A DNA stretch of 49,463 nt from Nemertoderma westbladi (GCA_032718475.1 JAUCBJ010007095.1:1-49463); one strand, 5' to 3'. Counted from the stretch's first letter, positions 5,654-37,015 are shown. Program-made: numbers and translations. The notes: generated from the letters alone by a model not told the origin.

Positions 5654-5692
5654 AAATAGTTAATATTAATAGTACCGTAGTAGATAACCCTA

Positions 5693-6177
5693 AGTAGTAG
5701 AAGAAGAGGGCCCCCCCGCGTACTCCTCCCTAGCCTGGGCTACGGGCTGCATCTCGGAGGGCTATTAAAAACGTGCTAAATCGCGATGTTTAATGACCAT
5801 CTGTCACCATCAATATTGATTCGTGTCGATGCCTTCAACCAATCATTGCCTATCGCCTACGCGTAGCCTAACCTCACGATGCCCGCCTTACTCGATAGCT
5901 GTTACCAACCGTGAGTATTGATTCGTGTTGTTGCATCAACCAACCATCGCATATTCATCTTCGTGTAACCTAACTTCACGAAGCATGGCTAGCCCCCACT
6001 ACGCTATTATATTATATATCGATTGCCAACTCACCACCGCTAGCCACGCACGGCTACTCCTCGACGGCTGTCGCCAAATCAATCCAACCAACCAAGCAGC
6101 CTCCTACCAGTCCAACGCTATGATACGTGAAATTCCGCCACGTTCCAGCTACACGTATACGAACATTTCCATAGTTA
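5693..6177 (+). repeat. Left terminal inverted repeat of the Polinton
   Basis: Reverse complement of 23957-24441, with about a dozen substitutions by eye. The terminus AGTAGTAG is the short repeat typical of protein-primed slide-back initiation. Confidence 0.97.
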
Positions 6178-6447
6178 CTCAACCTAACCTAACCAATCCC
6201 ACAGCATCTGTGCCATATTGAAAGGCTACCACCACCACCACCACTAACATTATACTGCGCGTTTTTATTATAATAATTATTGATTATTATTACACACAAC
6301 CCTATGATTCATATTCTTTCACGTATTTCCTATCCACGCAATCAACCAGCCAGCTATTCATCCACGTTGCTCCCCATCTCTTTTCTTATTCGTTGATGAT
6401 TATGACACGTACCATCTCTTCTTCGTTGACTATGCCACATCGCAAAT

Positions 6448-6461
6448 TTATATATATATAA
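6448..6461 (+). promoter_or_regulatory. Candidate TATA box of the first rightward transcription unit
   Basis: TTATATATATATAA followed 25-35 bp later by an initiator-like TCACTT (6485-6490). Similar TATATA(A) boxes precede other non-structural ORFs (~8003, ~13231, and ~23045 and ~23628 on the minus strand). Confidence 0.45.
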
Positions 6462-6502
6462 CTGAATGCTTTTAATAAAATTCATCACTTGTAATCTTCA
6501 TG

Positions 6503-6802
6503 GTAATATATTGATACCATATCTAATTTTTTGTTCTCACTCTGACATTGTGTTATTTCCTTAATAATTTATACATTATCTTACTCGTTGTATATTCGTT
6601 GGTCGGAAAACGACACCTCATAAAATGATACTGATTCCAGCATTGGGTATCGACCTAAAAACGAAAATCTGAGCTACGTGTCTCACCCGATTTTTGTTTT
6701 TGTGTCGATACCTAATGTCGAACTCAGCAACATTTTTCTTAGGCGTCGTCTTCCGACCAAACACAATTTTAGAGTGAGAACTATGGTGTCAATTTATTAC
6801 AG
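6503..6802 (+). ncRNA. Putative 5'-UTR intron that folds into a long hairpin (hpRNA/mirtron-like)
   Basis: Begins G|GTAATA and ends TTTATTACAG|. Arms 6503-6521/6782-6800, 6533-6554/6759-6781 and 6599-6673/6682-6760 are imperfect inverted repeats. Confidence 0.5.
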
Positions 6803-6857
6803 CGATACGGTTTAAAATTTATCACTTGTAATATTTTTCGTATTTATTATTATTATT

Positions 6858-7919
6858 ATGGCCTTAACGCAAAAAACCGGAGCAACAAATAGCTGGAAAT
6901 TTACTTACAATAAATATACTTGTACCGTCGTTCACAGCAAGTATTTTATTGTGGAATCTCAGGAGGACAACGAATCAATTTGTTTTTCCCATCAAGATAC
7001 CCGCTATTTGTTAGACATTCTAGAAACAACCAACAACCAACATCAATCCAGACCAGCAATTATACCAGGTAGGATATATCCCACTCTTCGTTTTGCGCGG
7101 GGAAATTTGAATATTTCCATCAACCCCACATCGGGTGATGTTTACGTTCAGAAACAAGGCAAATGTAAAGTTCTCAACAAAGCTTTTACTGAAGTTCTAA
7201 TTCAATACAGAGGGAAATTATTGCAATTTCTCTCTCCACCGCTAGAGATTATTAGCGATCAATTCTACATTGAATTATCAAATCCAGAGTTTATTGGATT
7301 TGTAACAGCTTTTAAAGGAACCAACTATGTTGGCTTATGGAAAATCAGCCTCAGATACACTGATAGTGTTGGTTTTAACTATTATACGGGTTTCAATTTG
7401 TCAAAACAGGAACTAACCGTTTTGTTGCGAGAGTGGGACAACCAAGTCGATGAAACAGACAAGCATCTTTTTGATAAAAATATCATTCAATTATCAGACC
7501 GTCTCAAAATGATTAAAACCAATAATAAAAAAATTATTATCACCAACACCGATAATTCTACTGAAGTAGGTGCCGGCGGAAATTCTATCGAGTTGCATTA
7601 CTTGAATGATAAAGCCCATATTAGTTTTCTCAAAGAATCGATGGATGGTGTTTCTCTTACTGAAGCCCATGTTGACGGTTTTGTCCTTTTGGATAAACCT
7701 AAAGCGTTCGTAGAGATCCCATCACCTAATCCAGATGTTGAAGAGAGTTGCTCTCAACCGCAACAGGTCTTTCCTGAAATATTACCTCGGAAGCCAAGAT
7801 CATCGAGTAAATTTACCAACGCATCACCTGCAAAGAAACAGAAAGTTGTCAGTAACCCAGTTCTAGTAGAGCCTGTTACTAATTCTCCATGGAAACCAGA
7901 TTATTATCCTAACATGTAA
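6858..7919 (+). CDS. Putative PC4/Sub1-like ssDNA-binding or co-activator protein (possibly several PC4-like repeats) with a basic C-terminal NLS
   Basis: FVTAFKGTNYVGLWK...TGFNLSKQELTVL resembles PC4 (VxxFKGKxxIDIRE...GISLxxEQWxxL). Similar beta-then-helix endings occur at SICFSHQD and DGVSLTEA. PAKKQK NLS-like motif. Confidence 0.55.
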   Translation: MALTQKTGATNSWKFTYNKYTCTVVHSKYFIVESQEDNESICFSHQDTRYLLDILETTNNQHQSRPAIIPGRIYPTLRFARGNLNISINPTSGDVYVQKQGKCKVLNKAFTEVLIQYRGKLLQFLSPPLEIISDQFYIELSNPEFIGFVTAFKGTNYVGLWKISLRYTDSVGFNYYTGFNLSKQELTVLLREWDNQVDETDKHLFDKNIIQLSDRLKMIKTNNKKIIITNTDNSTEVGAGGNSIELHYLNDKAHISFLKESMDGVSLTEAHVDGFVLLDKPKAFVEIPSPNPDVEESCSQPQQVFPEILPRKPRSSSKFTNASPAKKQKVVSNPVLVEPVTNSPWKPDYYPNM

Positions 7920-8108
7920 GCCTAATCATAAGTTAAACTCTTTGCGGTTTCCAATAGTCATAAGCGATTGGTGATTGGTTTAAAATTATTTCCCTCGCTA
8001 GCATATAAATGTTTAGATGTAGTCAATATCATATCATTTCATTTTATTTTAATCTTTGGAGATATTTTATTATTATTATTATTATTATTTATCTAAACAA
8101 ACTTCAAC

Positions 8109-11100
8109 ATGGATAAAATAACAATATGTTGTTCATTCTGTCATATGAATGTAACTAGACATAATTATTTACGCCACCTACGGTCACATTTTGAAAGTTA
8201 TTCTTGTTTAAAGTGTCATGTCGTGACTTCATGCAGCGAAATTTGTAAACGACATGAAACGACTACTGGTTGTAAAGAAATGGAGTTCCGCACCTATCAA
8301 TTGACTTGTTCTACCTGTAATAAAGAGTATACATATGACAATTATTTACGACACGATTGTCACTTGAAATGTTACTACACAAGAAAGCGTAAATTTCCGC
8401 AACATAAAAATATAATATCTAGAAAAAACTTAAGGGTGGCTCTTGGTACATGCGCAACAATTTTTACGCGGGAACAAGAAGCTCACGATAATCGTCTTGA
8501 AATTTATGTCCACGACCTCCCAACTTCTAGAGATTATCCCGATGTAGAAACAGCAGTAACGCAAATTCGAGGTAATATTCTTCAGTTAATATTAGATAGA
8601 TTGAAAGAAATGAATGTTCTTAGACTGTGGTTAGGTCTAAATGTATTAATGTACAGGTCACATTTTTCAGAAGGTGAGCAATTGGAAACCTTTTATTTTA
8701 ATTCTTCCGGTGGTGCTATTAATACTGTAGATTCGCCGCAAAGTTTTGACACATGGTTTGAGCATGTGCTGGGGAATATATTACAAAAAATAGCCATCTT
8801 TAACACACGTGGTTCTGGGTGGCGTATTAAATCTTTATTAAGGGTTGAAATTAAATTAGCTGAATCTAAGTGTAGGTCGTTACTATATAAGGGGCACGGT
8901 TATATGGAGTTACCTAAGGCTCTAGCGTGTAAACGATGTGTTATAAATGTACAATCGGCTGATAATGACTGTTTTAAATGGGCAATTATATCTGCAAAAT
9001 TTAGTAGCAAAGTGAAAAACAACAAACAGCATACTTCATCGTACAAAAATTATATGACTCATTTCATTTTTGACAACGGGAACAAAGATTATCCAACAGA
9101 GTGGCAGTTAGCAATTAAACTTTTTGAAAAACAAAATTCAAAATATATAATTAATTTACTATGTTGGAATAACGACAACAAACGCACCCCGGTATCTATA
9201 TTAAGACAACCTCCGTTTAGTAAAATTACACCTGATAAACAGTTATTAAATATATTACTTGTAGTAAAAAATAACAATGTACCTAAACTGAATCATTATG
9301 TTTGCATAACTAACTTGAATCGATTGCTGAATACGAGAGCACTTCATATCAGGAATAGGAAATATTGCGAAAGGTGTTTGACTCATTTTTTTCGAGCGGA
9401 AGTTCTTCATCGACACCGTCTCGCCTGCTACCAAGGAAGAAGTCAGCGCGAGAAACTACCTAATAAAAAAAGAACACACATTAGTTTTACAAATTTAGAT
9501 AGAACCTTATCCCCATTGTTTGTCACCTACTTTGATATAGAATGTATCTTACAACCGTCAGTTAATAATCAAATTATACAGGAGCATATACCGTGTGCAG
9601 TGAGTTATTTAATTGTTCCCAATACTGAATTAATTGATGCTCCAAAATGTCATTTGAAAACATTCGTAAAGTCAAATAATAATAATTGTATTCAAGATTT
9701 CTTAGATTCATTATATACTGATTTAACTGAATTATGTTGTTGGTCAGAAATATACACACATAAAACTATGTCATTTACTAATATTGATTTTGTAAATTTT
9801 GAACAAGCAAAATTTTGTTTTTATTGTAATGTTACTTTAAATAATAATGTTGGGAAAAACAGACACCATTCACATATTACAGGTAAATATATTGCGGCAG
9901 CCTGTAATAGTTGTAACCGAAGTTTATCATTGAAACGATACCTGTATGTACTTTGCGGGCACAATTCCAACAACTACGATATACATTGTATATTACAAAG
10001 CGGATTTAGAGATAAGAAATACACAGATTGGGATATAAAGGTTATACCGAGAAATACAGAACGATATATTTCACTGAGTGCCTTTATCCCAATTAAAAAC
10101 ACTTCTAAGAAAATTGAGTTACGTTTCTTAGACACATATCAATTTTTAAGCTTTTCTTTAAGTAATTTAGTTGAGTGTTCAACAAAGGATGTAGCCAGTC
10201 ATGATATAAGCTCAATTTTACCTATTACTCTACAAGAAATGAAATATTTTTATCCAAACTTGAATAACTCAACGATTAAACGGAAAGGAGTATTTCCATA
10301 CGAGTACTTGACAGATATAAATAAATTTAATGATACTGGTTTGCCGTCTATAAATAATTTTTTTAGTAACTTAAGTCAAAAAACATGCACAATTGAAGAT
10401 TATAGGTTTGCGGGAATATCATGGGTAGAATTCGACTGTGTGAATCTCAAAGATTATCTTTTAGCCTATTTAAAACTCGATGTTTGTTTGCTTGCCGATA
10501 TATTTGAGAATTTTAGGAATGTTTGTAAACAAAATTACGATTTAGAAGCGGTTTTTTACTGTAGTATCGCGTCATTTACCTATGATTGCGCGCTAAAATA
10601 TAATAAATGTAAAATAGAATTAATAAAGGATTATCAGACATATAGAGATTTTGAAAAATCAATTAGGGGTGGTGTTTCATTTTGTCGAAAGCATTATATA
10701 GAATCAAATATACCTGGAACAAGTACATATGATTCTACTAAGGAAGAATGCCATATTTTTAATATTGATTTCAACTCTTTATATTCTGGGAATTTAAGTA
10801 AAAAACTACCCACCTCGCAATTCAAAGAAGTAAGTATTAAACATTTAGAGAATGCAATTCCAGAAAAACTAATCGAGTATTTGGTAGATTTAGACATTGA
10901 TGGATCTACTGGATATTTTTTAATATGTGATTTAAATTATCCCAAGGCTATTCACGATCAAACATTACAATTACCGTTAGCCCCTGAGCATTTAAGTATA
11001 AATGAAACAATGCTTTCGCCTTATATGCAGGAACAATTTAATAATTTATCGATACAAAGAGGTACCTCCCGTAAATATAGGATGTCTACACCAAAACTCT

Positions 11101-12167
11101 TGCTGACGCAATTTGATAAAGAGTTTTATCATTTACATTTGAAACTGTTAAAATTTTATATAAAACATGGATTAATTGTTACTAAGCTCCATAAATTATA
11201 TTCTTTTCAACAAGAATTTGTATTTAAAAATTACATAGATTTTAATATTAATCAAAGGCGCCTAGCAAAAAGTTACATTGAAACTGCTGTCGCGAAATTG
11301 CTCAATAATTCACTGTTTGGCAAATCAATAGAGAGGATACGTGACCGATGTAACTTTCGTATCGCAAATAGCAACGATAAATGCGATCAATTGGTAAATC
11401 GTATTAATCATGAACAATTTATAATATACAATAATACATTATCGGGACATTTATTAGTGAAAGACTCTGTAACTCTCGATAAGCCTATATTTATTGGTAG
11501 CGCTGTGTTGGACTTGGCTAAATTGGATATGTATGAGCTGTTTTACAATAAATTGCTACCTATTGAGAAAGAATTAAACTGTCGTATTGAAATTGCTGCA
11601 TCAGACACTGACTCTTTGATAGGTTGTTATTATAATACATCGCAGAATAATTTTTTAAAAGCATTAATTAAAAATAATATTTTAGATACTTCCAATTACC
11701 CTAAGGATCACCCTCTCTACAGCGATAAAAATAAATCCCAACTCTATTACTGTAAAGACGAACTAGCCTCACGTGAAATTAAACAAGCAGTATTTTTAAG
11801 ACCAAAATTATATTCAATTTTGGAATGGAATAACAAAAATATTCGTAGAGCAAAAGGTATTACAAGAGCTGTTGTGGAAACGAATATTACACATGAAGAA
11901 TATTTAAAAGCCTATAACTCAAATGAAGAAATAAAAAAAAACATACACAGATTTCAATCTAAATTACATCGTATTTATACCTTAAAGCAAAATAAATTTG
12001 CACTCAGTAGCTTTGACGATAAACTTTATTGGGTTAATAAAAATCATTCGCTTCCTTGGGGGCACTATAAAACAAACCTCAAAAAACCTATAAAAATATC
12101 AAATATACCAATTTATGAAGAACCAAAAGACGATGGTATTGATGATGAATTATCAAATAGTAAATAA
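8109..12167 (+). CDS. polB: Protein-primed family B DNA polymerase with N-terminal Zn fingers and an endonuclease-VII/HNH-like insertion
   Basis: Exo motifs FDIEC, HNSNNYD and YLKLD; RKGVFPYEY; IRGG; DFNSLY; KLLNNSLFGK; DTDS; RPKLY; AKG; CxxC...RHHSHITGKY...CNSCN insertion; GSGW upstream. Confidence 0.97.
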   Translation: MDKITICCSFCHMNVTRHNYLRHLRSHFESYSCLKCHVVTSCSEICKRHETTTGCKEMEFRTYQLTCSTCNKEYTYDNYLRHDCHLKCYYTRKRKFPQHKNIISRKNLRVALGTCATIFTREQEAHDNRLEIYVHDLPTSRDYPDVETAVTQIRGNILQLILDRLKEMNVLRLWLGLNVLMYRSHFSEGEQLETFYFNSSGGAINTVDSPQSFDTWFEHVLGNILQKIAIFNTRGSGWRIKSLLRVEIKLAESKCRSLLYKGHGYMELPKALACKRCVINVQSADNDCFKWAIISAKFSSKVKNNKQHTSSYKNYMTHFIFDNGNKDYPTEWQLAIKLFEKQNSKYIINLLCWNNDNKRTPVSILRQPPFSKITPDKQLLNILLVVKNNNVPKLNHYVCITNLNRLLNTRALHIRNRKYCERCLTHFFRAEVLHRHRLACYQGRSQREKLPNKKRTHISFTNLDRTLSPLFVTYFDIECILQPSVNNQIIQEHIPCAVSYLIVPNTELIDAPKCHLKTFVKSNNNNCIQDFLDSLYTDLTELCCWSEIYTHKTMSFTNIDFVNFEQAKFCFYCNVTLNNNVGKNRHHSHITGKYIAAACNSCNRSLSLKRYLYVLCGHNSNNYDIHCILQSGFRDKKYTDWDIKVIPRNTERYISLSAFIPIKNTSKKIELRFLDTYQFLSFSLSNLVECSTKDVASHDISSILPITLQEMKYFYPNLNNSTIKRKGVFPYEYLTDINKFNDTGLPSINNFFSNLSQKTCTIEDYRFAGISWVEFDCVNLKDYLLAYLKLDVCLLADIFENFRNVCKQNYDLEAVFYCSIASFTYDCALKYNKCKIELIKDYQTYRDFEKSIRGGVSFCRKHYIESNIPGTSTYDSTKEECHIFNIDFNSLYSGNLSKKLPTSQFKEVSIKHLENAIPEKLIEYLVDLDIDGSTGYFLICDLNYPKAIHDQTLQLPLAPEHLSINETMLSPYMQEQFNNLSIQRGTSRKYRMSTPKLLLTQFDKEFYHLHLKLLKFYIKHGLIVTKLHKLYSFQQEFVFKNYIDFNINQRRLAKSYIETAVAKLLNNSLFGKSIERIRDRCNFRIANSNDKCDQLVNRINHEQFIIYNNTLSGHLLVKDSVTLDKPIFIGSAVLDLAKLDMYELFYNKLLPIEKELNCRIEIAASDTDSLIGCYYNTSQNNFLKALIKNNILDTSNYPKDHPLYSDKNKSQLYYCKDELASREIKQAVFLRPKLYSILEWNNKNIRRAKGITRAVVETNITHEEYLKAYNSNEEIKKNIHRFQSKLHRIYTLKQNKFALSSFDDKLYWVNKNHSLPWGHYKTNLKKPIKISNIPIYEEPKDDGIDDELSNSK

Positions 12168-12693
12168 AAATATAAGTTGTCGGCAAGTGTTAGCGATTAA
12201 TTTTAAAGAATTAAAAAATCAATTATCTGGTAAACACATACTCAAACCAAATCAGTTTATATATAAGATATTTGGTGCCACATTATTAATATTTAAAAAT
12301 GGTCGTATTACATTATTAGGCAGTAAGTATAATTTCCAAAAAGTAAAAAAACATATATTTGATAAAACTAGTATTAATTTGATTTTAAAATCTGTTAATT
12401 TATGTACTTATATTTTTAGTATTAAGTCTGTAGTCTATAGGTTATTGATAAACAATACAGGGTTTTATGTTGTCTTTGATAATGTGCAACTTCAAGTTAT
12501 ATATGAACCTGAAATATTCAATAACTGTAAAGTCAGAATAAATAATAATGTTGTTGTTTGCTGCTTCTACACCGGTAAATGTACATTAATGTGTTCCCCG
12601 TTTAAATTTCATATATATTACCCTATATTCAACAAACTGGTTAATAATTTATTATTGTTTGGTGCGAGGGTTTTTGTTGTAAAATATAATTAG
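12115..12693 (+). CDS. Divergent TATA-box-binding protein (TBP)-like protein
   Basis: Two TBP-type repeats: IVN...INFKEL...ATLLIFKNGRITLLGSK and SVN...YEPEIF...VVCCFYTGKCTLM, compared with TBP LQNIV...TALIFSSGKMVCTGAK and IQN...YEPELF...LLIFVSGKVVLTG. Core-TBP size. Overlaps the polB stop; the true start may be the Met at 12142 or 12145. Confidence 0.82.
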   Translation: MKNQKTMVLMMNYQIVNKNISCRQVLAINFKELKNQLSGKHILKPNQFIYKIFGATLLIFKNGRITLLGSKYNFQKVKKHIFDKTSINLILKSVNLCTYIFSIKSVVYRLLINNTGFYVVFDNVQLQVIYEPEIFNNCKVRINNNVVVCCFYTGKCTLMCSPFKFHIYYPIFNKLVNNLLLFGARVFVVKYN

Positions 12694-13378
12694 TGTGAGT
12701 GAAATTTATTGTTGTTGTTGCTGTTTGGTGGTGGAGATTTTTACTAAAATATATATATATATATTAAATTGGTTGGAAAAAATTATGAATATTTTTTTAA
12801 AATCAACAACTAGTTTGAGAGGAAATTAACTTCAGTAGAGCGATTGTTGCTTGTAACACTCAAGTAGGCATAGTATACTCAGAGGCTGTAGCTAGCTAGC
12901 TAGCTAACTCGGCATTGTTGCTCACGAGTGAGTTACAATAGCGCATCTGTTACTTATGAGTGTGTGAGAGTGCGGTAGGCAACGCTAAGCTCGGTGAGAA
13001 AAGATTAGGGCTATGTGCTGGTATTCATAGTCAAAGACGATGCCCTCCTATCTGTTACTAGTCTGAATACCGGTACATATCATTAAAACATTGGCTATGC
13101 ATCTCCCTACATTCAGAATAGAACAACGACCAGAGCATATATCGCTAATCCGCATGGGAAAGGTTTATGTTATGCATTTTGTTAACTATGAGAATTTTGT
13201 AATGTACACATCTGCGACCCTCTACAAAAATATATATAAACTCAATTTTTCTGAAAGTGAACTCTAATTTTGTTAAATAAAAGAAGAAAAAAATATCAGT
13301 AGGCCTACCTATTCAATTTAAAGATACTCTTTCCGGTATCTAGTTACGACGACAACGACAACTTACCTCAATACAAAC

Positions 13379-13801
13379 ATGACATTCGCCTTTTTCAATA
13401 ACCGTGAGTTGACGAGTTGTATCAAAATCGAATTGCAATCAAGCGACGAAACATATCTCGCAGCATCCAATATTGCTGAGATGGAGTTGCGATATATAAA
13501 CAAAAAATTTGAGATCGGGTTTACTTCGATGGAATATGGAGTAGGTCAAGTAGGTGGTCTACCTTTATCGCCTACAACGCTTGAAATTTCAAAAGATTTC
13601 TCGCTTGTTATAAAGATACAACCATCGCGAATATCGGGAAGCTCACCCTCTAGCGAAAATTGGGAGAATGATGTTGATGACTCGCTTCACTTCAATATAC
13701 CAACACAAAGACCGGTAGAAGTTAGCCGGCCTATAAACAACCATTTACAGGTACCGGCAAGGGAGGAAACTCTACAGATGGACCCGCATATAGGACTATA
13801 A
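13379..13801 (+). CDS. Hypothetical Polinton accessory protein (140 aa)
   Basis: ATG ORF with TATATATAAA at ~13231, AATAAA at 13822-13827 and a GT-rich tract downstream. Confidence 0.6.
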   Translation: MTFAFFNNRELTSCIKIELQSSDETYLAASNIAEMELRYINKKFEIGFTSMEYGVGQVGGLPLSPTTLEISKDFSLVIKIQPSRISGSSPSSENWENDVDDSLHFNIPTQRPVEVSRPINNHLQVPAREETLQMDPHIGL

Positions 13802-13821
13802 AAGGTATAGCCTAATACAGT

Positions 13822-13902
13822 AATAAATTTAGGGTTGTTGTTATTGTTATTGTTATTGTTATTGTTATTGTTATTGTTATTGTTATTGTTATTGTTATTG
13901 TT
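13822..13902 (+). terminator. Poly(A) signal AATAAA plus (GTTATT)n GU-rich downstream tract
   Basis: AATAAA 21 bp after the last + strand ORF, followed by a hexanucleotide microsatellite. Confidence 0.45.
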
Positions 13903-14954
13903 AGGCCTATCAGTTATTGTTGCTTATAAAACTTAGTAGACTGAATCTATTTTATATATAATTAAAAAAAAAAGCGAATACATAAATAAACTAACTATGT
14001 TTTATATAGGCCTCCGTCAACATAGAGTGAATGTTAGTAACAGAGAATGTGGTGGATTTTATATAGGCTTAGTTAGGTATACTGCGGGCCACACCTATTG
14101 TATCCGCGTGGAGCCATTATATGACTGGTTGAATGATGGGGTTCCTGACTAAAAGTTAACGGTATAGCATACAACATAAAGTGAATGTTGAAAGTTAGTA
14201 ACAGAGAGTGTGAGGGGATTTTATAGGTCCAATAGCGCTACCGGTACCTAACTACACCTATTGTGTCTGCGAGGTAGTCAGCTTTCAGTTGAGGAGTAGT
14301 CATTAGGCCTATATGCCTAACCGAATGAAGGTGTACCTTACCTATCCGTAAACCATATTGGGTCAACATGCGAAAAAGGGCCCCGCATAAAGTTAACTAT
14401 AGCTGTATAGGCTTACCTATGCAACAGTAGCACGCAGTAATGTAGATTAGACCAATTAAAGTTGTAAACAGAAAATTGGAAGCATTCAAGTGTAATAGCC
14501 TAATCCTTAAATCAAAGAAACCAGTATGCTCTTGCGCTATCCAAGTATACAGGTACAAGAGTGCTACGGTGCTGGTACCAGTAGGCCTATTGTTAGGTAG
14601 GCCTCCTCTAATGCTGTATTCACGAACCCGCATGTCGACTTAATTTAATTTTATTATTAGTAAGTACGGTACCGGTAACGCTAAAGCTCTGTGGTTGCTG
14701 TCGGGGGCCATTCTGCCGTTCTACAGTTTAGCGTTGTTGGCATATGTAGTAAAATCAGATAGCTACTGGTAGTTAAACTCTGATACAACCGCCGGCTACC
14801 GGTAGGTGCAGGGTGTGTGTGTGTGTGTGTGTGTGTGTAAACTTAAGTCCTACACCTTTAGTCAAACTGAGATATAAAAAATAGATTTTAATGTTTTTAT
14901 TATTTTTATTGACATTAAAACAATTATATTATCCCATCACATTACATTACATGC

Positions 14955-15500
14955 TTAGAGTAAACGCTTTCTCATGAAAAAGTGTAGCGCCTCATACCCC
15001 CCAACGCGTTTTGCTGAGCAGTATCGCAGACAGTTATCCCTTATGTTTAAGTGGAACGTGCATTTACTTTCTACTGTAGTGAATCGGTCGTGAAATCGAC
15101 AAGGCGTTAAATAATCGTGATATTGCTTATATATTCCCAATTTCTCCACCGAATTTGGCTCGAGAACATCGAGTTGGGAAACTAATATTGCCCGCTTCAG
15201 CAACCCAAATACATGAATATTTTTTTTATATTTTAAATGTCTCTTCATATATTTTTTAAAGTCATCTTGAGAAATGTCCCCGTAGTCCCAGGGCAAGTGA
15301 GAAGTCATATCCCGTAAATTGTTTACGTGAGCTGCATCTAAAGCTGATAACTTAATATTAGATGGGCCTTTAATTAAAAACGTCTTTACATTAGTTTTGG
15401 TATAATTAGAATCGTATATTGCAAATTCTTTAAATACTACCGGATACTCCTTATTGTCTATCTTATAATATTGAAAATCAACAAAAATAATATTATCCAT
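14955..15500 (-). CDS. DEDD/DnaQ-like (RNase H fold) protein, probably degenerate, of a type seen in Polintons
   Basis: FVDFQ...FKEFAI, HLPWDYGDI, HVFGLLK and C-terminal CxxH...C motifs. Minus-strand AATAAA signals at ~14896-14910. Confidence 0.55.
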   Translation of the reverse strand: MDNIIFVDFQYYKIDNKEYPVVFKEFAIYDSNYTKTNVKTFLIKGPSNIKLSALDAAHVNNLRDMTSHLPWDYGDISQDDFKKYMKRHLKYKKNIHVFGLLKRAILVSQLDVLEPNSVEKLGIYKQYHDYLTPCRFHDRFTTVESKCTFHLNIRDNCLRYCSAKRVGGYEALHFFMRKRLL

Positions 15501-15535
15501 TTTATCTGATAAACAAAAGCAAGCTAAATGATTAA

Positions 15536-15988
15536 TTACAACGCATGTTGGTTTATTTTATAATAATTAACAAGCCATTTATATAATATTATTTCATTTA
15601 TTTCCACATTATTTGTAAACGCTCTCATTGGATAGATTGTGTGAATACGATTTACCAAATAATACAGACAGTACAGACCGCATGTGGTCCTCCTTGGGTC
15701 TTGAAATTGTTTGCGAGTAGTACGCCACCTTGCGGAATTTTTCTCAAGCCATTTTTCGATGCATCTGTTTGGATATTTTGGTCCAAACGAGTCAAATACT
15801 TCGGCCTCATTATCTCGTATATATATCGCGATCCAATGAATCCCAGACAGATGCTCTTTATCGGTATTTACTATCAAGCCATAATCCTGCCGCTTATTAT
15901 TATCTAATTTAGGTAATTTATTAGCTGGAAACGCACCCAAATAGTGGCCACCCACTGGAAACATATCAAGTTCCTCTGTAGATAACAT
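15536..15988 (-). CDS. Adenain-like (Ulp1/C5 family) cysteine maturation protease
   Basis: NTD...GIHW, FDSFG and Q...CGLYC give the His-Asp-Gln-Cys catalytic set. Confidence 0.95.
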   Translation of the reverse strand: MLSTEELDMFPVGGHYLGAFPANKLPKLDNNKRQDYGLIVNTDKEHLSGIHWIAIYIRDNEAEVFDSFGPKYPNRCIEKWLEKNSARWRTTRKQFQDPRRTTCGLYCLYYLVNRIHTIYPMRAFTNNVEINEIILYKWLVNYYKINQHAL

Positions 15989-15990
15989 AC

Positions 15991-17250
15991 TTAATCGATA
16001 TGTATTTCTTTCCTGCTATTTAAACTTAATGATTGATCATAAATATTAAAAACGATTACATTTATGGTTTCAACCAACGGTTCGGCAAATCTTAATTTTA
16101 ATTGGCCGTTAGTATATATCGACGGTTGCGGATCTCTAACGTAGCCGTCGGCGGTTAGGTCCCAGGATAGGATGGGACAATTACCTAAGTAGGTTTCATG
16201 GTCTATATTATTACCTCCATAACCGTTAATATATGTATTAATGTTCTTCATTAATTGAGTATACTCAAAAATATATGTTCCATCTGTAAAATTAGGTTCG
16301 TATATTACACCCCCTACTGGAAGACCGTCTACAATCAGTTCCGCGCGTCTAAGGTTAAAATGTTCAAATTTCAAGGGATTGCTAATTAATTCTCCTGAAT
16401 AAGCGTTATTTGTTATGAAGCCAATAATAACTAATTTGGGTTTTTTACCATCAAATATGTTTGTTTGGGTGTAATTTGTGGTTTGAGCGGGAATAGTAAA
16501 TGTTGTCACCTCCTTTTTTTGAAATTGATATTCAATATCGTAACTCTCTAAACCTTTTAGGTGACTGCTTTCTATTACTGGATTAACCTCCATTCTAGGG
16601 ATTAGAATCTTTATTTCATCTAATTCTAACCGAAGATTTGTCACAGCGTTTGCGTTTGGAGTGATTTTAAAAATAAACGAATTTGATACTTTTCTAAAAT
16701 GCATTCTTAAATCATACCCGGGTTGTATTATTTTAGTTTCAGTATCAAAATCAATTGTCAATCCACTTACAAATTGCATTTGTTTACTAAAGGCATCAGC
16801 AATAGGATGCGCGCCGGGATCAATTTCATTTCCGTGTTCAGATAAAGGTTGATGAAAGCCACCCGCACCCAGTAGCCCATTTTTATCCTCGTAAGTTGTA
16901 AATAATAAATTGGATAAGTACGACTTGTAGAAATAATGGTTATTGCTATTTTCAACCTGCTTCTCATTAAGGTCTATTTTAATATCACTCCACATAGTTT
17001 CAGCGGGGTAATTCAGCATATAAATATGGGAGTTTTCAAGTCGTCTATCCCAGCGTACAGTACATTTTGTAATTAATAACGCGTCTTGCAGTTTCGTATA
17101 GAATTCATTGGATCTCGGTACAAGGAACGTGACCTCCCTAGATTCACTTCTGAGATTAGATACAGGGTAAATTGTTTCATAATGCTTTGCTTTAAATTCA
17201 GTCTGTATTGGCTGTATAGAAAATAAATCTAATTCCTTAATAATTGACAT
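15991..17250 (-). CDS. Major capsid protein (double jelly-roll, hexon-like)
   Basis: ELDLF..PIQT N-terminus, PKLVIIGF...AYSG...NPLKFEHFNL, WDLTAD and LRFAEPL motifs of the Polinton MCP family; 419 aa; adjacent to the protease gene. Confidence 0.92.
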   Translation of the reverse strand: MSIIKELDLFSIQPIQTEFKAKHYETIYPVSNLRSESREVTFLVPRSNEFYTKLQDALLITKCTVRWDRRLENSHIYMLNYPAETMWSDIKIDLNEKQVENSNNHYFYKSYLSNLLFTTYEDKNGLLGAGGFHQPLSEHGNEIDPGAHPIADAFSKQMQFVSGLTIDFDTETKIIQPGYDLRMHFRKVSNSFIFKITPNANAVTNLRLELDEIKILIPRMEVNPVIESSHLKGLESYDIEYQFQKKEVTTFTIPAQTTNYTQTNIFDGKKPKLVIIGFITNNAYSGELISNPLKFEHFNLRRAELIVDGLPVGGVIYEPNFTDGTYIFEYTQLMKNINTYINGYGGNNIDHETYLGNCPILSWDLTADGYVRDPQPSIYTNGQLKLRFAEPLVETINVIVFNIYDQSLSLNSRKEIHID

Positions 17251-17252
17251 TA

Positions 17253-17816
17253 TTAAAAAATACTTTTTTCGCAGTGTTTCAGTTTACCCTTTATTTTTTT
17301 ATTTTTATTACTACGTCGATGATGTATGTTCATAGACATTGGTCTAGCGGGTCGCTTTAAATCTCTATAAACTTTTTCTACAACTGACCTTGTTGACGGT
17401 TTCATTTTATTTAATGCTTTATTAATAACCGTATTAGCCTGCTGATGTAAGACCCGCTTACCTTTTGGTATTACGTGTTGTCTCATAAATTTTGTGGAAA
17501 AAGGTAAAGCTTTCTGTAAAACTTTTTTAGCTAATGGTTTACCAAATTTTTTCAATGTCGATAAGGTGTCTGTAAATATACCTTCTCCGTGTTGATTTGC
17601 CTGCATACCTCTACGATAACGCTGAAAACGACGTTGTTTTAAGTTTGGACCAAATGTGCCAATTTGTTGACCGTAAGGGTCAATATATGAACCACCTCGA
17701 AAAACAGGAACTTGCGTCGAACCTCTGGTACTTCTACCACCTTTAAAAACAGCAAGATTAGAGTCTGAACCACCATATTGAGGTTTACTGTATCTTTGAA
17801 ATAAATCAGAATCCAT
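17253..17816 (-). CDS. Basic virion core/precursor protein with Gly-Gly protease sites and an amphipathic helix
   Basis: QYGG, FKGG, FRGG and QHGEG motifs followed by IFTDTLSTLKKFGKPLAKKVL; Arg/Lys-rich; sits in the conserved position between mCP and MCP. Confidence 0.7.
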   Translation of the reverse strand: MDSDLFQRYSKPQYGGSDSNLAVFKGGRSTRGSTQVPVFRGGSYIDPYGQQIGTFGPNLKQRRFQRYRRGMQANQHGEGIFTDTLSTLKKFGKPLAKKVLQKALPFSTKFMRQHVIPKGKRVLHQQANTVINKALNKMKPSTRSVVEKVYRDLKRPARPMSMNIHHRRSNKNKKIKGKLKHCEKSIF

Positions 17817-17817
17817 T

Positions 17818-18663
17818 TTAATTTATACGTTTAAAGTGTAATGTAATAGATGTTGTCCCGTATTCAAAATTCAAATCTTTTCCTTCTTTGTCTGTTATTT
17901 CAATATGAATGTATGTTATCTTATATGATTTTTTTACAGGGATGTAATGAATTGTATCCTTGACAAATTCTTTATTTATTACGCTACCATATTTCACATC
18001 ATCAGGTATCGCAACACGACGAAGTAAAGCTAAACCAAAATCGTTAATATATTGATTTTCAATTATATTAGTAGTCACGTACATGTTCGACTTAGGTTCT
18101 GGAATAGAATTGGGTGGTTGAGGGCATAAAAATACCATCTGGTAAGCTTTTTCTCCATTTCCGATAACCTTTATTAAATAACCCTTTATATTATTTTTCG
18201 TCTTCAAAATAATTTTAAAATTTGGATTTAAATTCACGCCGAGATTATTTTCAGTAATTCCAAAATAATAGGCTAATTGTTGACCTATAAATAACTCTCG
18301 CACAGTTTTCCCTAAAATAAATTGCAACCTATTTTGCTGAGTATTTTCAACTATTTGTAATTTATCTTTCAACGCCCCCGTGTTAAAATAATCTATAATG
18401 TCATTGATACTGTAGAACAAACCGGATGGAAGTGTATCCTCAAAATTTTTTTTTCCTTTTTTTAATAAAATAACATTCTCTACATTGTTATACATGGACG
18501 GCAACGTAGCTAAGTAAAATATACTTTTTATACCTACCACCCAGTTTTCGTTTGGGTTTATAGTTAAGGCGCCATGGAAATTTATCTGATAATTACTAGC
18601 GCTATTGCGGGGAAAATCAATTGGACAGAAATTACTTGGTAGTCTTACGTAGAATTCATCCAT
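17818..18663 (-). CDS. Minor capsid protein (penton-like), paralogue 2
   Basis: FYVRLPSN...N..SNY, WVVGIKSIFY, MYVTTNII...LLRRV, YIPV and ITDKEG...F...TSITLHFKR. The ATG at 18663 overlaps the upstream stop. Confidence 0.88.
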   Translation of the reverse strand: MDEFYVRLPSNFCPIDFPRNSASNYQINFHGALTINPNENWVVGIKSIFYLATLPSMYNNVENVILLKKGKKNFEDTLPSGLFYSINDIIDYFNTGALKDKLQIVENTQQNRLQFILGKTVRELFIGQQLAYYFGITENNLGVNLNPNFKIILKTKNNIKGYLIKVIGNGEKAYQMVFLCPQPPNSIPEPKSNMYVTTNIIENQYINDFGLALLRRVAIPDDVKYGSVINKEFVKDTIHYIPVKKSYKITYIHIEITDKEGKDLNFEYGTTSITLHFKRIN

Positions 18664-19555
18664 CACTGCCACCCCGTATTAACTTAAGTGTTATAACAGT
18701 GCGACCTCCGCTGAAGTTAATTAATTCGCCTTGTCCGTCACGTAAAGTAATTAAGATTGTTTTTAGTTTTTTATTCAACAACGGGTAATAGCAAATGCTC
18801 TCGTATTCGTGATTAATATATTTTCGATTTAATTGCGTTAAAGGGCAGGTTCTTAAGAGCGGAGCTAAAGCGTCGCCAACAAATGAGCTCTTAATAATAT
18901 CTGTGTATATAAAGATAGTGTCTTTATTACATGTTATATTCGTGGGAGCTGGAAAATCTAAAATGCCAATTTCCGAAATTTTTGGCCCGCTATAATTTAA
19001 AATTAATATTGGCCCGCTATAATTTAAAATTAATATTGGCTGTTCTATATTGCTTAATTCATCTACTGTAGTGGTACTGTATATATCCCAATTCGGAATA
19101 TCCGGATGATTCCGATCCAATAACGGTTTTAAGCCTAGAATTTGTATTAAATCACCACGTAGACTTAATTGTATTTTTTTCAACTTTTTAGGAAATTTAA
19201 ATTTAATTCTAGAATTATTTGTATTAAAAATGAATTCGAAATCTCTATATTTCGCTTCAGAATTAAACAGTTTATTTATATCATCAATAATGACTTGAAT
19301 AGAGTTATGCATACCAGGAAATAAACTATATAATTTGGCATCTTTTGCATCTACCCCGATTGACAGTGAGATTTGAGTTTGCAGCGTAATATTACTGTAT
19401 GTTGCTTGATATTGAAGCTCGGCAAGCCCAATTTTAGCGTTTGGACCAATATATAATTCTTCGGCTAAATCAACAGTAAACTCGCTAGGATTATTATTGG
19501 GGTAAGTGTTTAATGAGCTATCTGAAAGTAGAGTGATATATGTATCTGTAGCCAT
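18656..19555 (-). CDS. Minor capsid protein (penton-like), paralogue 1
   Basis: YITLLSDSS..YPNN.PSEF, IGLAELQY, IFIYTDII...VGD..APLLR, YYPL and LRDGQGELINF..GRTVITL. Confidence 0.92.
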   Translation of the reverse strand: MATDTYITLLSDSSLNTYPNNNPSEFTVDLAEELYIGPNAKIGLAELQYQATYSNITLQTQISLSIGVDAKDAKLYSLFPGMHNSIQVIIDDINKLFNSEAKYRDFEFIFNTNNSRIKFKFPKKLKKIQLSLRGDLIQILGLKPLLDRNHPDIPNWDIYSTTTVDELSNIEQPILILNYSGPILILNYSGPKISEIGILDFPAPTNITCNKDTIFIYTDIIKSSFVGDALAPLLRTCPLTQLNRKYINHEYESICYYPLLNKKLKTILITLRDGQGELINFSGGRTVITLKLIRGGSDG

Positions 19556-19831
19556 TATTATTATTATTTAAGCTCGCTCTCTCTCTACTTGACTCCATTG
19601 TACATACAGTACAGTACAGTATAATGTTAAATTATAGACATCTGTGACCACGTTCATTGTCGTTCATTGTCGCATCTTCTACAGTATATGCGCGGGATCA
19701 ATATTTTACTGGCTTTATTGGCTTTATTTAAAACGGATGAACTATAGATATAGTAATATCATTCGAGTTAATATTGATTAATTACGGTCATATGCGACCA
19801 AAATGAATTAATATACAGTATAAACCTAAGC

Positions 19832-20920
19832 TTATTGAATATGCTGTACCCACGACTGTTTCTTGGATCCGATGAATCGGACTAAATATTCTTTCTTCCC
19901 ATTGCGTACACGTTCTTTAAGTTTGCCAATATTTTTATCAATTGCTAGATAAATATTACTATTCGGGTGGACCTTTTGGAGTTCGTGAGAATAAAATGAG
20001 CCCTTTATTATAGCTCCAGCGCTGTCCTTAATATCGAACATTACAGCTGGTACTCTATCCAGCCTGACACGATGAATAATAAATAATTCACGTGTCCATT
20101 GTTCTCGATAGCCTTTAGCAAAAGCAGTACGAGCGATAGATAATCGTACTGTATCTCCAACTTTAAATTTTATTTTCTTATGATTAATCTGTCTATATTT
20201 CCCATATAATCTATTCATTAATTCAGTTTCATTAAATTTATTAACTTCAATAGGCGTCATTTTTATTGTCCTATGATATGACCTATTATAAGCCGAGATA
20301 AGCTTAGGTAAAATTTTAATCCAAACATTATTTCCTCGTTGTGTAAAAATTTTGAACATCTTTGTTTTTAATGTTCTATTGAATCTCTCGACAATAGCCG
20401 CCTTATTCACAGAGTACATTACGTAATACTGTATACCTAACGTATCTAAATATTTCCTTACAGATTTATTTAGAAACTCAGAACCTTGATCCGTGGCGAT
20501 TCTGTTTGGTTTTCCTTTCTGGAATATTTTTTGCAATATACTAATAATTTCAACACCCTTTTTTGTTTTCATACCATAGCCAAAAGCAAGCCTGCTAAAG
20601 GCATCAATACATGTTAATATATAGTTATAATTATTATTTTGCGACTTATATTGCTGCATATCCACCAGATCTATCATATATATATCTTTTATGCCTCCCG
20701 TAAATATTTTAGATGTTGGATAATGGTGTCTACGTGGAGCGTGAAGGGTGTATGTCTTTTGCCCGCTCATCCATTTCTGGGCTTGTGCTGGTTTGATGTT
20801 TGCAGCTTTTGCTAATTTTGCAACACTTGCAAATCCCGCAGGGGATGAAGGATCTAAATAAATTCTTAACAGTTTTTTGTCTAAGCTTCGGCTTAAAATC
20901 GGTTTCATCTTGCGAGGCAT
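19832..20920 (-). CDS. int: Polinton retroviral-like DDE integrase with a C-terminal chromodomain-like remnant
   Basis: YLDPSSPAGF, IDLVDM, IDAFSR, TDQGSEF, VERFNRTLK, FKVGDTVR..FAKGY..QW and EYLVRFIG...SWV. Confidence 0.96.
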   Translation of the reverse strand: MPRKMKPILSRSLDKKLLRIYLDPSSPAGFASVAKLAKAANIKPAQAQKWMSGQKTYTLHAPRRHHYPTSKIFTGGIKDIYMIDLVDMQQYKSQNNNYNYILTCIDAFSRLAFGYGMKTKKGVEIISILQKIFQKGKPNRIATDQGSEFLNKSVRKYLDTLGIQYYVMYSVNKAAIVERFNRTLKTKMFKIFTQRGNNVWIKILPKLISAYNRSYHRTIKMTPIEVNKFNETELMNRLYGKYRQINHKKIKFKVGDTVRLSIARTAFAKGYREQWTRELFIIHRVRLDRVPAVMFDIKDSAGAIIKGSFYSHELQKVHPNSNIYLAIDKNIGKLKERVRNGKKEYLVRFIGSKKQSWVQHIQ

Positions 20921-20971
20921 CTTTTCGACAACCGCAAGTAATATGTATATTCAAATCTCTTATAAAGGGCA

Positions 20972-21142
20972 TCACCGTAAGAACAACTGAATTTTTTTAA
21001 TTATTTTCTTTGAAGTTGATGTTTTAAAGGGTTTTCTTTTTGTAGTATTTACTCTAGGTATATCTTGAGGTTTTAAATCAGTAGCTAACGGTTTACTCGA
21101 TACTAAATATAATTTTCTAAATGTTACTCCTGTTTTAACCAT
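20972..21142 (-). CDS. Small basic ORF (56 aa, MVKTGVTFRKLYLVS...), not in the supplied track
   Basis: Manually translated. Starts in a TAATAATG junction right after the upstream stop and fills the gap before the integrase gene. Confidence 0.45.
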   Translation of the reverse strand: MVKTGVTFRKLYLVSSKPLATDLKPQDIPRVNTTKRKPFKTSTSKKIIKKIQLFLR

Positions 21143-21144
21143 TA

Positions 21145-21528
21145 TTACCGTCCGCGGTTAATTTTTTTCGCAATAGCTGCTCCAGCGGCGGCGGCTCCGG
21201 CACTCGCGGCGAGTTTCGCACCAATGCTGAGTAAGGGTATTAGAAACGGTAGTATACCTCCAGATTGATTGCTTAACTTTTTTCTGTAACTTGATATATT
21301 TTTTGTTTTACGGTTGAGTGATTTCAATACCTTCTTATAGCGGCGAATATTTCTAAATGAATGAGGGGTTAATTGTACATTACCTTTTAGAACATTTTAT
21401 GCAGTATTTACAATGAGCCGTATTAATTCGTTACTCGCGGTATGGTTAATAAAATAAGTTCTTTGTTGAGGGGTAGCGCTGCGTAGAAATTCCAGTTCGT
21501 TACGATATTTCTGCACAAGTCTATTCAT
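21145..21528 (-). pseudogene. Conserved Polinton small basic virion protein (NVLKGNV...QSGG-hydrophobic helix) with one in-frame TAA
   Basis: Manual translation MNRLVQKYRNELEFLRSATPQQR...IVNTA*NVLKGNVQL...NQSGGILPFLIPLL. The stop lies at 21397-21399, where the family usually has Leu (TTA to TAA). Confidence 0.8.
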
Positions 21529-21565
21529 TGTTGCAACATTATTGAAAATTGTTACAAAATATTAA

Positions 21566-22249
21566 TTATTTATCATTATTATTATTATTATTATTTTCGC
21601 TACGTTTATAGTCAGTGTAATTTTTAATGTAACAATTATGATTACGAAATATATCAGATCTAAATCTTAAATGTTCGGGTGTTTCCTGTCGTAAATCAAT
21701 TAAGAAATGTGAAAATGGTTGAATTGTCGCATCTTGATAGGAATCAACTAAAAATTTGGTCTGCCCTGGTAACATCTGCTTCGCGAAATTTAAAACCGAT
21801 AAACTGTCTCTCGGATTTTTCATTAATACTAAAGTATGGCTATTAATTGATCTTGTGCGGTTATGCTTCCCACCGTAAAACATGTTTTGCGTTATAAAAC
21901 AAATAAATATATTGGAATGATGAGCTACCTTAGTAAACAATACAGTTAATGCTGTACTGGACTCAGTTTCTGTTAACAAATCATCTATAATTAATAAATC
22001 TCGACTATTCACTAAACTATCTATATTTTCGGGCAAACCTTTGTAAAGGTGAGTAATACCGGGAATAGTCGGGGGATTGCTCCCGTAACAATACAATACT
22101 CGCAAGGGGGCTTCGTTGAAACAACCATTCTTGTGTTTAATTAAATTGCTTACAAAGGTTGACTTTCCAGAACCAGATGGCCCAGAAATTATCATACTCG
22201 TTCCCATTTGAAAGTTTAAATTATATGGACCTGAATTAAAGTCAGCCAT
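21566..22249 (-). CDS. FtsK/HerA (A32-like) DNA packaging ATPase
   Basis: Walker A GPSGSGKS, Walker B LLIIDD, HH, ITQN and NPRD motifs. Confidence 0.96.
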   Translation of the reverse strand: MADFNSGPYNLNFQMGTSMIISGPSGSGKSTFVSNLIKHKNGCFNEAPLRVLYCYGSNPPTIPGITHLYKGLPENIDSLVNSRDLLIIDDLLTETESSTALTVLFTKVAHHSNIFICFITQNMFYGGKHNRTRSINSHTLVLMKNPRDSLSVLNFAKQMLPGQTKFLVDSYQDATIQPFSHFLIDLRQETPEHLRFRSDIFRNHNCYIKNYTDYKRSENNNNNNNDK

Positions 22250-22465
22250 TTATTATTATTATTAAGATATATCAACAATACAATATAATATAATATCAAT
22301 ATCAATATCAATAAACCATCACCATTACTATGTATATAACAATAATTGATGCAACTACAATATTAGAGTACTGTATATTTAATTAACATACGACGCCGCT
22401 ACAGTATGTGACGCTCGCTGCAACAAAAGGTGCTATTTCCAATTATAGTATAGACTGATGTAATT

Positions 22466-22918
22466 TCATGCTTGGTGAGCATCTTTATACGTGAAATAAT
22501 GATAGGTAACATCGGCGGTTTGGAAATCACTTCCCGAAAATTTCGCACTAATAATTTTTTTATGTTCGCTGCTAAAAAAATAAGGAATATAGTAGCAACA
22601 GCGTCGTACTACATTTCTATAAAAAATATTCTCCAATATTGTAAATAAATCTCCCGGATCATTACTTTCCGCAGAAATATAAGTTATATTGCGAAGCTCT
22701 TTCCAATAATCGGGTTGATAACTTGCCAACTTTATATTAAACTTAGATATGGATGCGCTACAAATAGGACAAATTTTAGAACAATAATTATTCATTTCAG
22801 AATATTGTACAATACATTGTACGCAAGTTGCATGTTTATTTTCACATTTATAATAATCTCGATGTTGTTGCAATAACTTAGAATAGCAAACTGGACATTT
22901 TTCATTTAAAATATCCAT
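22466..22918 (-). CDS. RING-finger (C3HC4-type) protein, putative E3 ubiquitin ligase
   Basis: CPVC-x14-C-x3-H-x2-CVQC...CPIC. Confidence 0.8.
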   Translation of the reverse strand: MDILNEKCPVCYSKLLQQHRDYYKCENKHATCVQCIVQYSEMNNYCSKICPICSASISKFNIKLASYQPDYWKELRNITYISAESNDPGDLFTILENIFYRNVVRRCCYYIPYFFSSEHKKIISAKFSGSDFQTADVTYHYFTYKDAHQA

Positions 22919-23086
22919 TTTCCAAATTTTAAAGTAAATTGAAAATAATTACCGCAATACACAACAACAACAACAACAAACAAAACTGTTATACTGTATA
23001 TACAAATACTGCTACAATTTTCGATTATTTAAAAACATCAAAATTTTATATATAATCATAAAATATTTATAATATAGAGGGAAAAG

Positions 23087-23533
23087 TCAAGAATCAATGA
23101 TATTATCAACATATTCAACATTATCCGTTGATTCTTCAGTTTCGATAAAGGATTCTTTTGAAATCATTACAATAAAGAAAGACATAATTTCGTAGGGGCT
23201 ATGCCGATTTAGCCGTATTTCAAACTTTTCACCAGCTTCGTTGTATTGTGTAATAACAATAAACCCCTCTATCATGGATAATAGTAAAATGTTGCTTAAT
23301 TTTCCCTCATGCTCAACTTTTTTCAGGTTGTAATCTAAGAGATGAACACTATTATCAGAAGCATTAATATCAATTGAGCTTAAAACTTTCCTGGCTTTTT
23401 CAGAAAACTCAATTTTATATTTATCATCTCCCTGACGGTAAATTGTATAATCAATAACAATATAGGCTTGACCATCTTCTGCAAAAAATGAATGCCTTAC
23501 CATTGGCATAACCATATCGGAATCAGAAGACAT
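23087..23533 (-). CDS. Hypothetical Polinton accessory protein (148 aa, acidic tail)
   Basis: ATG ORF, first gene inward of the right TIR, with a TATATATA box at ~23628-23637. Confidence 0.6.
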   Translation of the reverse strand: MSSDSDMVMPMVRHSFFAEDGQAYIVIDYTIYRQGDDKYKIEFSEKARKVLSSIDINASDNSVHLLDYNLKKVEHEGKLSNILLLSMIEGFIVITQYNEAGEKFEIRLNRHSPYEIMSFFIVMISKESFIETEESTDNVEYVDNIIDS

Positions 23534-23956: not shown

Positions 23957-24441
23957 TAACTATGGAAATATTCGTATACGTGTAGCTGGAACGTGGCGGA
24001 ATTTCACGTATCATAGCGTTGGACTGGTAGGAGGCTGCTTGGTTGGTTGGATTGATTTGGCGACAGCCGTCGAGGAGTAGCCGTGCGTGGCTAGCGGTGG
24101 TGAGTTGGCAATCGATATAATATAAAATAGCGTAGTGGGGGCTAGCCATGCATCGTGAAGTTAGGTTACGCGAAGATGAATATGCGATGGTTGGTTGATG
24201 CAACAACACGAATCAATACTCTCGGTTGGTAACAGCTATCGAGTAAGGCAGGCATCGTGAGGTTAGGCTACGCGTAGGCGATAGGCAACGATTGGTTGAA
24301 GGCATCGACACGAATCAATATTGATGGTGACAGATGGTCATTAAACATCGCGATTTAGCACGTTTTTAATAGCCCTCCGAGATGCAGCCCGTAGCCCAGG
24401 CTAGGGAGGAGTTCGCGGTGGGGCACTCTTCTTCTACTACT
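23957..24441 (-). repeat. Right terminal inverted repeat of the Polinton
   Basis: Ends ...CTTCTTCTACTACT; mirror of 5693-6177. Confidence 0.97.
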
Positions 24442-30530: not shown

Positions 30531-30565
30531 ATTATTCAATTATTCCAATGTTTCTTAAATCGTAA
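28571..30565 (+). pseudogene. LINE reverse transcriptase, truncated and probably inactive
   Basis: PVPKKG, RGISL, QNGFR, GVLQGDTLAPFLF, FADD and FCYLGS. The first catalytic Asp is replaced (FVGFFKAFD, GGC at 29495-29497). Confidence 0.88.
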
Positions 30566-36980: not shown

Positions 36981-37015
36981 TATAGTATAAATAGTATGCT
37001 GTATAACTAAAAAAG

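Follow-up and report, generated by a model that had tools for sequence, protein, structure and literature searches.

We found that a Polinton in the genome of Nemertoderma westbladi encodes a homologue of the TATA-binding protein (TBP). The gene lies in a 49,463-nt stretch of DNA (GCA_032718475.1 JAUCBJ010007095.1:1-49463; hereafter, the window), in an ORF of 192 aa at 12115..12693 on the + strand that overlaps the 3' end of the DNA polymerase B gene (polB, 8109-12167) by 53 nt. Judged from sequence, the Polinton TBP is real, intact, under selection, and lineage-wide, and we infer from these features how it might act in transcription.

The Pfam TBP family (PF00352) matched the ORF above its cutoff in two stretches (E 8.6e-8, 32.4 bits; cutoff 22.9), and hhalign against 59 other TBPs, annotated cellular and unannotated ones, gave 94.8% (E 5.5e-8) over residues 11-168. 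These results bear out an earlier sequence-only reading, which had placed both TBP repeats in the ORF overlapping the polB stop and had proposed the Pfam comparison. When the window TBP was used as a phmmer query, 1.84 billion representatives contained a single match, a 171-aa protein (35%, E 3e-4) that its source annotates as TBP. A single-sequence search of 5.8 billion proteins yielded 0 matches (111 candidates), the PDB sequence search returned myosin noise only, and scans of viral contigs with the window TBP, the capsid protein, and the Polinton-TBP alignment as queries gave no matches. A structural model guided by a 78-row TBP alignment had a pLDDT of 74, and the PDB matches listed by Foldseek at ranks 1-44 all contained TBP (best E 4.6e-10), although these matches are partly circular because the input consisted of TBPs; Foldseek also matched diverged viral TBPs in BFVD. 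The fold of the single sequence was uninformative (pLDDT 34). The protein may have the saddle fold of the family. At the level of sequence comparison, we regard it as confirmed that the ORF encodes a two-lobed TBP homologue that is heavily altered.

The motifs IVN, SVN, LIFKNG, YEPEIF, and CCFYTG are all present in the translation of the ORF. Residues were mapped with Dictyostelium TBP (P0086) as the anchor, and three MAFFT modes were compared. The window TBP keeps N17, F60, G69, E131, E133, F135, R141, F151, and K155, among which we take N17 to correspond to yeast TBP N69, F60 to F116, E131/E133 to E186/E188, F135 to F190, and F151 to F207. Three intercalating Phe residues are firm (F60, F135, and F151), in agreement with the claim that at least three of the four DNA-kinking positions are occupied; the remaining site (yeast F99) falls on F48 in all three MAFFT modes and on P45 in another alignment, and a Pro at the P45-type placement is common to all six Polinton TBPs. 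The further claim that each first strand retains its Asn did not hold for SVN, since the conserved second-lobe Asn aligned to Thr98 in two of the three modes and to a gap in the third, and never to Asn95; the other alignment gave the same picture. Other positions have changed, namely T124 to L68, T215-G216 to M159-C160, P191 to N136, V122 to T66, V213 to T157, L205 to C149, and N159 to T98 (or a gap). If the central TATA-reading Asn/Thr pairs are yeast N69, N159, T124, and T215, as we assume, N17 alone is kept, and T98 (or a gap), L68, and M159 stand in place of the rest. Because most of these central contacts are changed, the protein reads as a family member and not as a canonical TATA reader. 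The relatives described below mostly keep what the window TBP has lost, that is, the Asn (T98), the Thr-Gly (M159-C160), and the Pro (N136), and given these losses its DNA binding may be weak.

The C-lobe stirrup YEPEIF (12502..12519, + strand) contains E131, E133, and F135, which, together with F60 and F151, are invariant in 6/6 Polinton TBPs despite identities of 19-45% between those of distinct elements, the window included. In the available text of PMC7221094, the C-lobe stirrup is the TFIIB/Brf contact loop of cellular TBP, its two glutamates make the contact, and Brf1 and Brf2 bind through the same Glu contact. The window protein resembles cellular TBP and its paralogues (PF00352) in its two-lobe core, its three firm intercalating Phe, this stirrup, and a basic pI (calculated, 9.8). 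Unlike cellular TBPs, to which it is 19-28% identical, it is encoded by a mobile element, has no N-terminal extension, has a shortened N-lobe hairpin and helix, and has most of the central Asn/Thr/Val contacts changed. The shortened N-lobe helix is the one with the TFIIA/Mot1/TAF1 basic patch; its alignment is mode-dependent, and several Lys remain.

Translation likely starts at Met11 (12145), giving a 182-aa protein that would be a bare TBP core, because one sister copy (X4; loose ends of records 18 and 19) lacks the Met1 codon and keeps Met11; the core begins no more than 7 residues from Met11. Two TATAAAA boxes lie just upstream within polB, as had been noticed from the sequence, at 12066-12072 and 12089-12095 on the + strand, but the first is largely explained by the polB codons: it arises from Tyr-Lys-Thr codons, is expected at P=0.61 in synonymous resampling, and is probably incidental. 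The second (P=0.14), located 56 nt before Met11, is a candidate promoter of the TBP gene and shares its CYTATAWAA form with four boxes at 13923-14227. Since polB codons yield the boxes at these probabilities, and both jointly at P=0.08, the two boxes would on their own be weak evidence. With a transcription start about 30 nt past 12089, the transcript would begin after Met1 and before Met11, in keeping with a dispensable Met1.

The element that carries the gene spans 5693-24441 (18.7 kb), and its core ORFs are open. It is bounded by terminal inverted repeats (TIRs) with 485-nt arms that are 98% complementary, the left one (5693..6177) starting with AGTAGT and the right one (23957..24441) ending with ACTACT. 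Long TIRs with AGT termini, together with a protein-primed DNA polymerase B and a retroviral integrase, are features of Polintons/Mavericks. Polinton/Maverick insertions carry a target-site duplication of 6 bp, and comparison of the flanks at 5681-5692 and 24442-24453 revealed no target-site duplication, despite the 98% TIRs; this concerns the history of the window copy and not the type of element, and the copy has possibly recombined with another.

On the + strand, the element encodes a 353-aa ORF (6858..7919), the protein-primed DNA polymerase B (8109..12167; 1352 aa, frame open; homologues carry PF03175 and PF02945, with no direct Pfam polB match), the TBP, and a 140-aa ORF (13379..13801) with no Pfam or PHROG family above threshold. 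The 353-aa ORF is PC4-like by eye only, and this reading was unconfirmed by Pfam, PDB, PHROG, and hhalign, none of which gave a useful match. An ORF-poor stretch (13790..14900) follows, with seven TATAAAR boxes and a unit present twice at a spacing of about 160 nt. The remaining genes lie on the − strand: a 181-aa ORF (14955..15500) that is DEDD-nuclease-like by eye (23-25% versus ORFs of loci L031, L040, and L047; no family match); an adenain-type maturation protease (15536..15988; Pfam Peptidase_C5 above cutoff); a putative major capsid protein (15991..17250; syntenic homologues in L031 and L033, E ~1e-41 to 1e-45; no Pfam match), whose label was assigned from size and gene order; a basic, putative core protein (17253..17816); two putative minor capsid ORFs (17818-18663 and 18656-19555), with homologues in related loci; a retroviral-type integrase (19832..20920; Pfam rve E 2.1e-11, above cutoff); a putative A32-like packaging ATPase (21566..22249; P-loop matches, Pox_A32 E 0.001 below cutoff, homologues in related loci); a RING-finger-like ORF (22466..22918; weak Pfam RING matches below cutoff); and a 148-aa ORF (23087..23533) with no Pfam match. 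The capsid protein labels, based on synteny, are putative. Scanning 14/14 element ORFs with Pfam gave no TFIIB, cyclin-fold, or RNA polymerase match, a search that a highly diverged TFIIB could escape, and this accords with the earlier description of an element of about 19 kb without an RNA polymerase.

The element family is multi-copy, with 25,228 contigs of one run (X1) matching it, and was also matched in data under a second organism label (X5). We compared the TBP region (12040-12730) among four runs, using contigs and not whole copies. Among the best-supported 40 of 83 variant sites, 24 were at third codon positions and 19, taken as single changes, were synonymous, where 19% of sites would be expected (p 5e-5), and no variant created a stop. 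When the stretch around small indels was left out, 15 of 26 variants were synonymous (p 2e-5). As controls, the listed variants were synonymous at 12/16 in polB and 11/18 in the other element genes. The best-supported 12 of 195 indels across element copies all lay between ORFs, and the insertions listed inside the TBP ORF together make up one codon in the contigs carrying them; two low-depth contigs were gapped in the ORF by 8 and 1 letters (X1 record 1 and X3 record 15). Because synonymous variants exceed expectation, we conclude that the gene is under purifying selection across sister copies.

To place the gene among relatives, we used 109 polB-related loci, consisting of 29 viral loci and 80 metagenome loci retained from 446, all from a polB alignment search. 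A TBP profile detected TBP in five of them (L031, L033, L040, L044, and L047), so homologues in other Polintons, for which the sequence-only reading had proposed a search, do exist. All five proteins were above the Pfam cutoff (46-57 bits); L044 and L047 are 98% identical, leaving four distinct elements among these carriers. Integrase and ATPase genes occur in L031, L033, and L040, and protease and capsid homologues in L031 and L033. In L031, L033, L044, and L047, TBP follows polB within about 1-4 kb; in L040, it lies in the ATPase-integrase cluster. In a polB tree of 106 rows (the window and 105 loci, with four short-match loci left out), the six TBP carriers fell within one 19-row clade with a support of 100, and the 27 TBP-less loci of at least 11 kb, some of them duplicates, were all outside it; one of these TBP-less loci, L023, is complete, since it is bounded by TIRs. 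In the other 13 members of the carrier clade, just 79-2004 nt of sequence follow the polB match, which is not enough to judge the presence of TBP. With all six carriers in one polB clade and the long TBP-less loci outside, TBP looks like a lineage trait of that clade. A quick TBP tree also grouped the six Polinton proteins (SH-aLRT 97), although its branches are long and compositionally odd. With an end branch of 9.0, the window TBP has diverged further than any other member, and it ranks 120th of 121 on the relatives' profile, with other TBPs scoring higher. Given the odd long-branch tree and this ranking, we do not claim a single origin of Polinton TBP.

We give an even chance to the reading that this diverged, core-only TBP, kept by selection, is a viral promoter-binding factor that would recruit host TFIIB and Pol II to the genes of the element. 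The TBP gene would be transcribed early by host TBP from the canonical box at 12089 and translated from Met11. The viral TBP would then bind and kink AT-rich viral DNA through three or four Phe, and the sequence it reads would be other than canonical TATA, which we propose because most of the central contact residues are changed. Host TFIIB would dock on the YEPEIF loop and bring Pol II; the targets would be the capsid, protease, integrase, and ATPase genes, and a canonical TATA box is missing from most of these genes. Redirection of host Pol II would fit because the TFIIB-contact glutamates are kept and the element gave no TFIIB or RNA polymerase match. More tentatively, at somewhat under an even chance, one Polinton lineage may possess a one-protein late-gene switch, consisting of a captured TBP whose DNA specificity has been rewired and which works through host TFIIB and Pol II.

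The promoter regions were searched for the corresponding signals. Before the late genes of the window, TATA[AT]A occurred in 2/7 cases (2.5 expected), and in the TBP-carrying relatives in 1/16 (1.7 expected), compared with 15/43 in TBP-less loci, where it is enriched (6.9 expected). The difference between carriers (3/23) and TBP-less loci (15/43) fell short of significance (Fisher p 0.08), and host and lineage are confounding factors. In k-mer scans of the seven late genes of the window, the best motif, A.ATACAT, preceded 5/7 genes, but even at the most favourable of 12 settings 5/150 null sets equalled it; a PWM search of the window late genes scored below the null mean. That no motif common to the late genes of this element withstood the controls counts against the promoter-binding reading. 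TTAAGC preceded 7/24 late genes of the relatives against 0.8 expected (uncorrected, and mostly in L031) and 0/43 in TBP-less loci; it was absent from the top motifs of any window late gene. The seven TATAAAR boxes at 13790-14900, counted on both strands, exceed a shuffle mean of 1.4 (0/300 shuffles as high; uniform-placement p 0.013 for six in 500 nt), and no long ORF lies downstream. No comparable cluster was found in L033 or L040, and the TBP-less L003 has five TATAAAR in 500 nt. This stretch is possibly a control region, a set of non-coding RNA promoters, or a candidate TBP-binding array.

Some of these features would also suit a protein that fills TATA-like sites or ties up host TFIIB non-productively, dampening host defence or the early genes of the element. 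The loop that contacts TFIIB has been retained, in contrast to the heavily altered central DNA-reading residues and N-lobe helix, no late-gene motif was found in the window, and the seven TATA boxes are clustered 1.1-2.2 kb downstream of the TBP gene. However, toxicity would be costly for an element with so many copies, and the DNA-intercalating Phe residues are conserved as well as the stirrup across the clade; we consider such a decoy unlikely. Less probable still is a role in DNA architecture, in which the protein would bend the AT-rich termini or the genome for protein-primed initiation or packaging. Host factors bend DNA at the adenovirus origin and so aid protein-primed initiation, and the proximity of TBP to polB, overlapping it in the window and lying a few kilobases downstream in four relatives, would be in keeping with this, but in L040 the gene sits in the ATPase-integrase cluster instead, and bending alone leaves the invariant TFIIB-contact glutamates unexplained.

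Brf1 or Brf2, which use the same Glu contact in the available text of PMC7221094, might instead be recruited through the stirrup, and small viral RNAs might be made by Pol III from the ORF-poor 12.7-14.9 kb. That region has TATA boxes and no long ORF downstream; however, no tRNA and no credible Rfam match were found, the region has no B-box match, and we regard a Pol III factor as improbable to a greater degree than either of the foregoing roles. Finally, the extreme divergence of the window TBP and the gaps that are not multiples of three in some low-depth contigs might suggest neutral captured cargo in decay. This is largely refuted and very improbable in our estimate, since synonymous changes are in excess among the variants, the listed ORF indels together amount to one codon in the contigs that have them, and the gene has been kept across a deep clade. 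A viral promoter-binding factor stays our preferred reading.

Viral TBPs are already known, and a Polinton TBP is little documented in the literature searched. According to the available text of Ravarani et al. 2020 (PMC7221094), the first stirrup Glu is retained by roughly 40% of the TBPs of large viruses, and nearly all viruses with such a TBP have a TFIIB gene of their own. The Polinton protein is similar to these nucleocytovirus TBPs, as presented there, in being viral, diverged, and in keeping the key Phe, and differs from the TBP-TFIIB pairs in that both stirrup Glu are invariant in 6/6 Polinton TBPs and no TFIIB was detected among the 14 ORFs of the window element. In the accessible part of PMC7498053, KSHV ORF24 is part of a complex of six proteins and uses an N-terminal domain of its own to bind the Pol II CTD. 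The beta/gamma-herpesvirus vTBP exemplified by ORF24 shares with the window protein a TBP-like nature, reliance on host Pol II, and a late-gene role (here proposed), whereas the window protein is 182 aa long, is without such an N-terminal domain, and would depend on host TFIIB. VLTF3, a giant-virus late factor, is carried by polintoviruses and PLVs (PMC11131425; 10.64898/2026.06.19.733378, as far as their available texts go); these are likewise Polinton-class elements with a transcription factor of their own, but VLTF3 belongs to a different family, and the window TBP would be a basal factor with a predicted host-TFIIB interface.

In the consulted portion of Starrett et al. 2021 (PMC8502044), a "TBP" label appears on a MELD-virus map (Fig. 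5 legend, in the section on non-animal datasets) with no analysis. Compared by this legend label only, that entry resembles our case in that a TBP-like gene sits on a linear dsDNA element of middle size whose PolB is adintovirus-like. Our literature search, to which subscription journals and Repbase were external, met TBP in a Polinton-like element only in this legend and in the preprint of that paper. The main texts, as available, of PMC10748475, PMC11131425, PMC8097293, PMC11161782, PMC12220804, 10.64898/2026.06.19.733378, 10.64898/2026.10.13.758929, and 10.1101/2025.02.07.637071 contain no mention of TBP or the TATA box. The sequence-only reading's view of the system as a candidate for an undescribed one has to be qualified in view of this label.

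If the proposed switch is true, viruses would have a third solution, next to the TBP-TFIIB pair of giant viruses and the complex of six proteins in herpesviruses. Polintons keep capsid genes, and the switch would be a sign of a staged, virion-making cycle in this lineage. A lineage-wide TBP with a host-TFIIB contact would offer a testable handle on staged Polinton expression and would be a minimal viral hijack of basal transcription. A TBP of changed specificity that still uses host TFIIB would, moreover, be a natural orthogonal promoter factor.

Several minor observations accompany these results. The TBP N-lobe of three distinct relatives is overprinted, over 241-352 nt and with the same frame offset, by an ORF that lies upstream (L031:7511-8399, L033:8810-9743, L044:4842-5739, and L047:1896-2826), and no such overprint was found at TBP in the window or L040. 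A DEDD-nuclease-like ORF (by eye) accompanies TBP in four of five distinct elements (window 14955-15500; L031:8389-8940; L040:11226-11687; L047:2813-3361), directly 3' of TBP in L031 and L047. Beta-rich ORFs that are PC4/ssDNA-binding-like by eye adjoin polB in the window (6858-7919), L031:7095-7454, and L044:4454-4792, with no search confirming the resemblance. Three short, divergent TBPs (P0001, P0002, and P0003; 171-175 aa) on contigs of 1-1.7 kb branch beside the Polinton TBPs and could derive from elements of a similar kind. AGGCCTA occurs 16 times against 4.1 expected, with 10 in the ORF-poor element region and 6 in the flank (13300-14604 and 37506-38975); as the motif is also present in flanking DNA, the ORF-poor region may be host-like. 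In the flank, retroelement-like ORFs (by eye) at 29195-30565, 32819-36291, and 44945-49417 comprise a LINE-type RT and two LTR-type pol ORFs and suggest an animal host, one of the retroelement-like ORFs being bracketed by a 212-nt direct repeat at 32512 and 36770, and 37006-38028 contains arrays of 15-nt units in inverted orientation that are MITE- or foldback-like.
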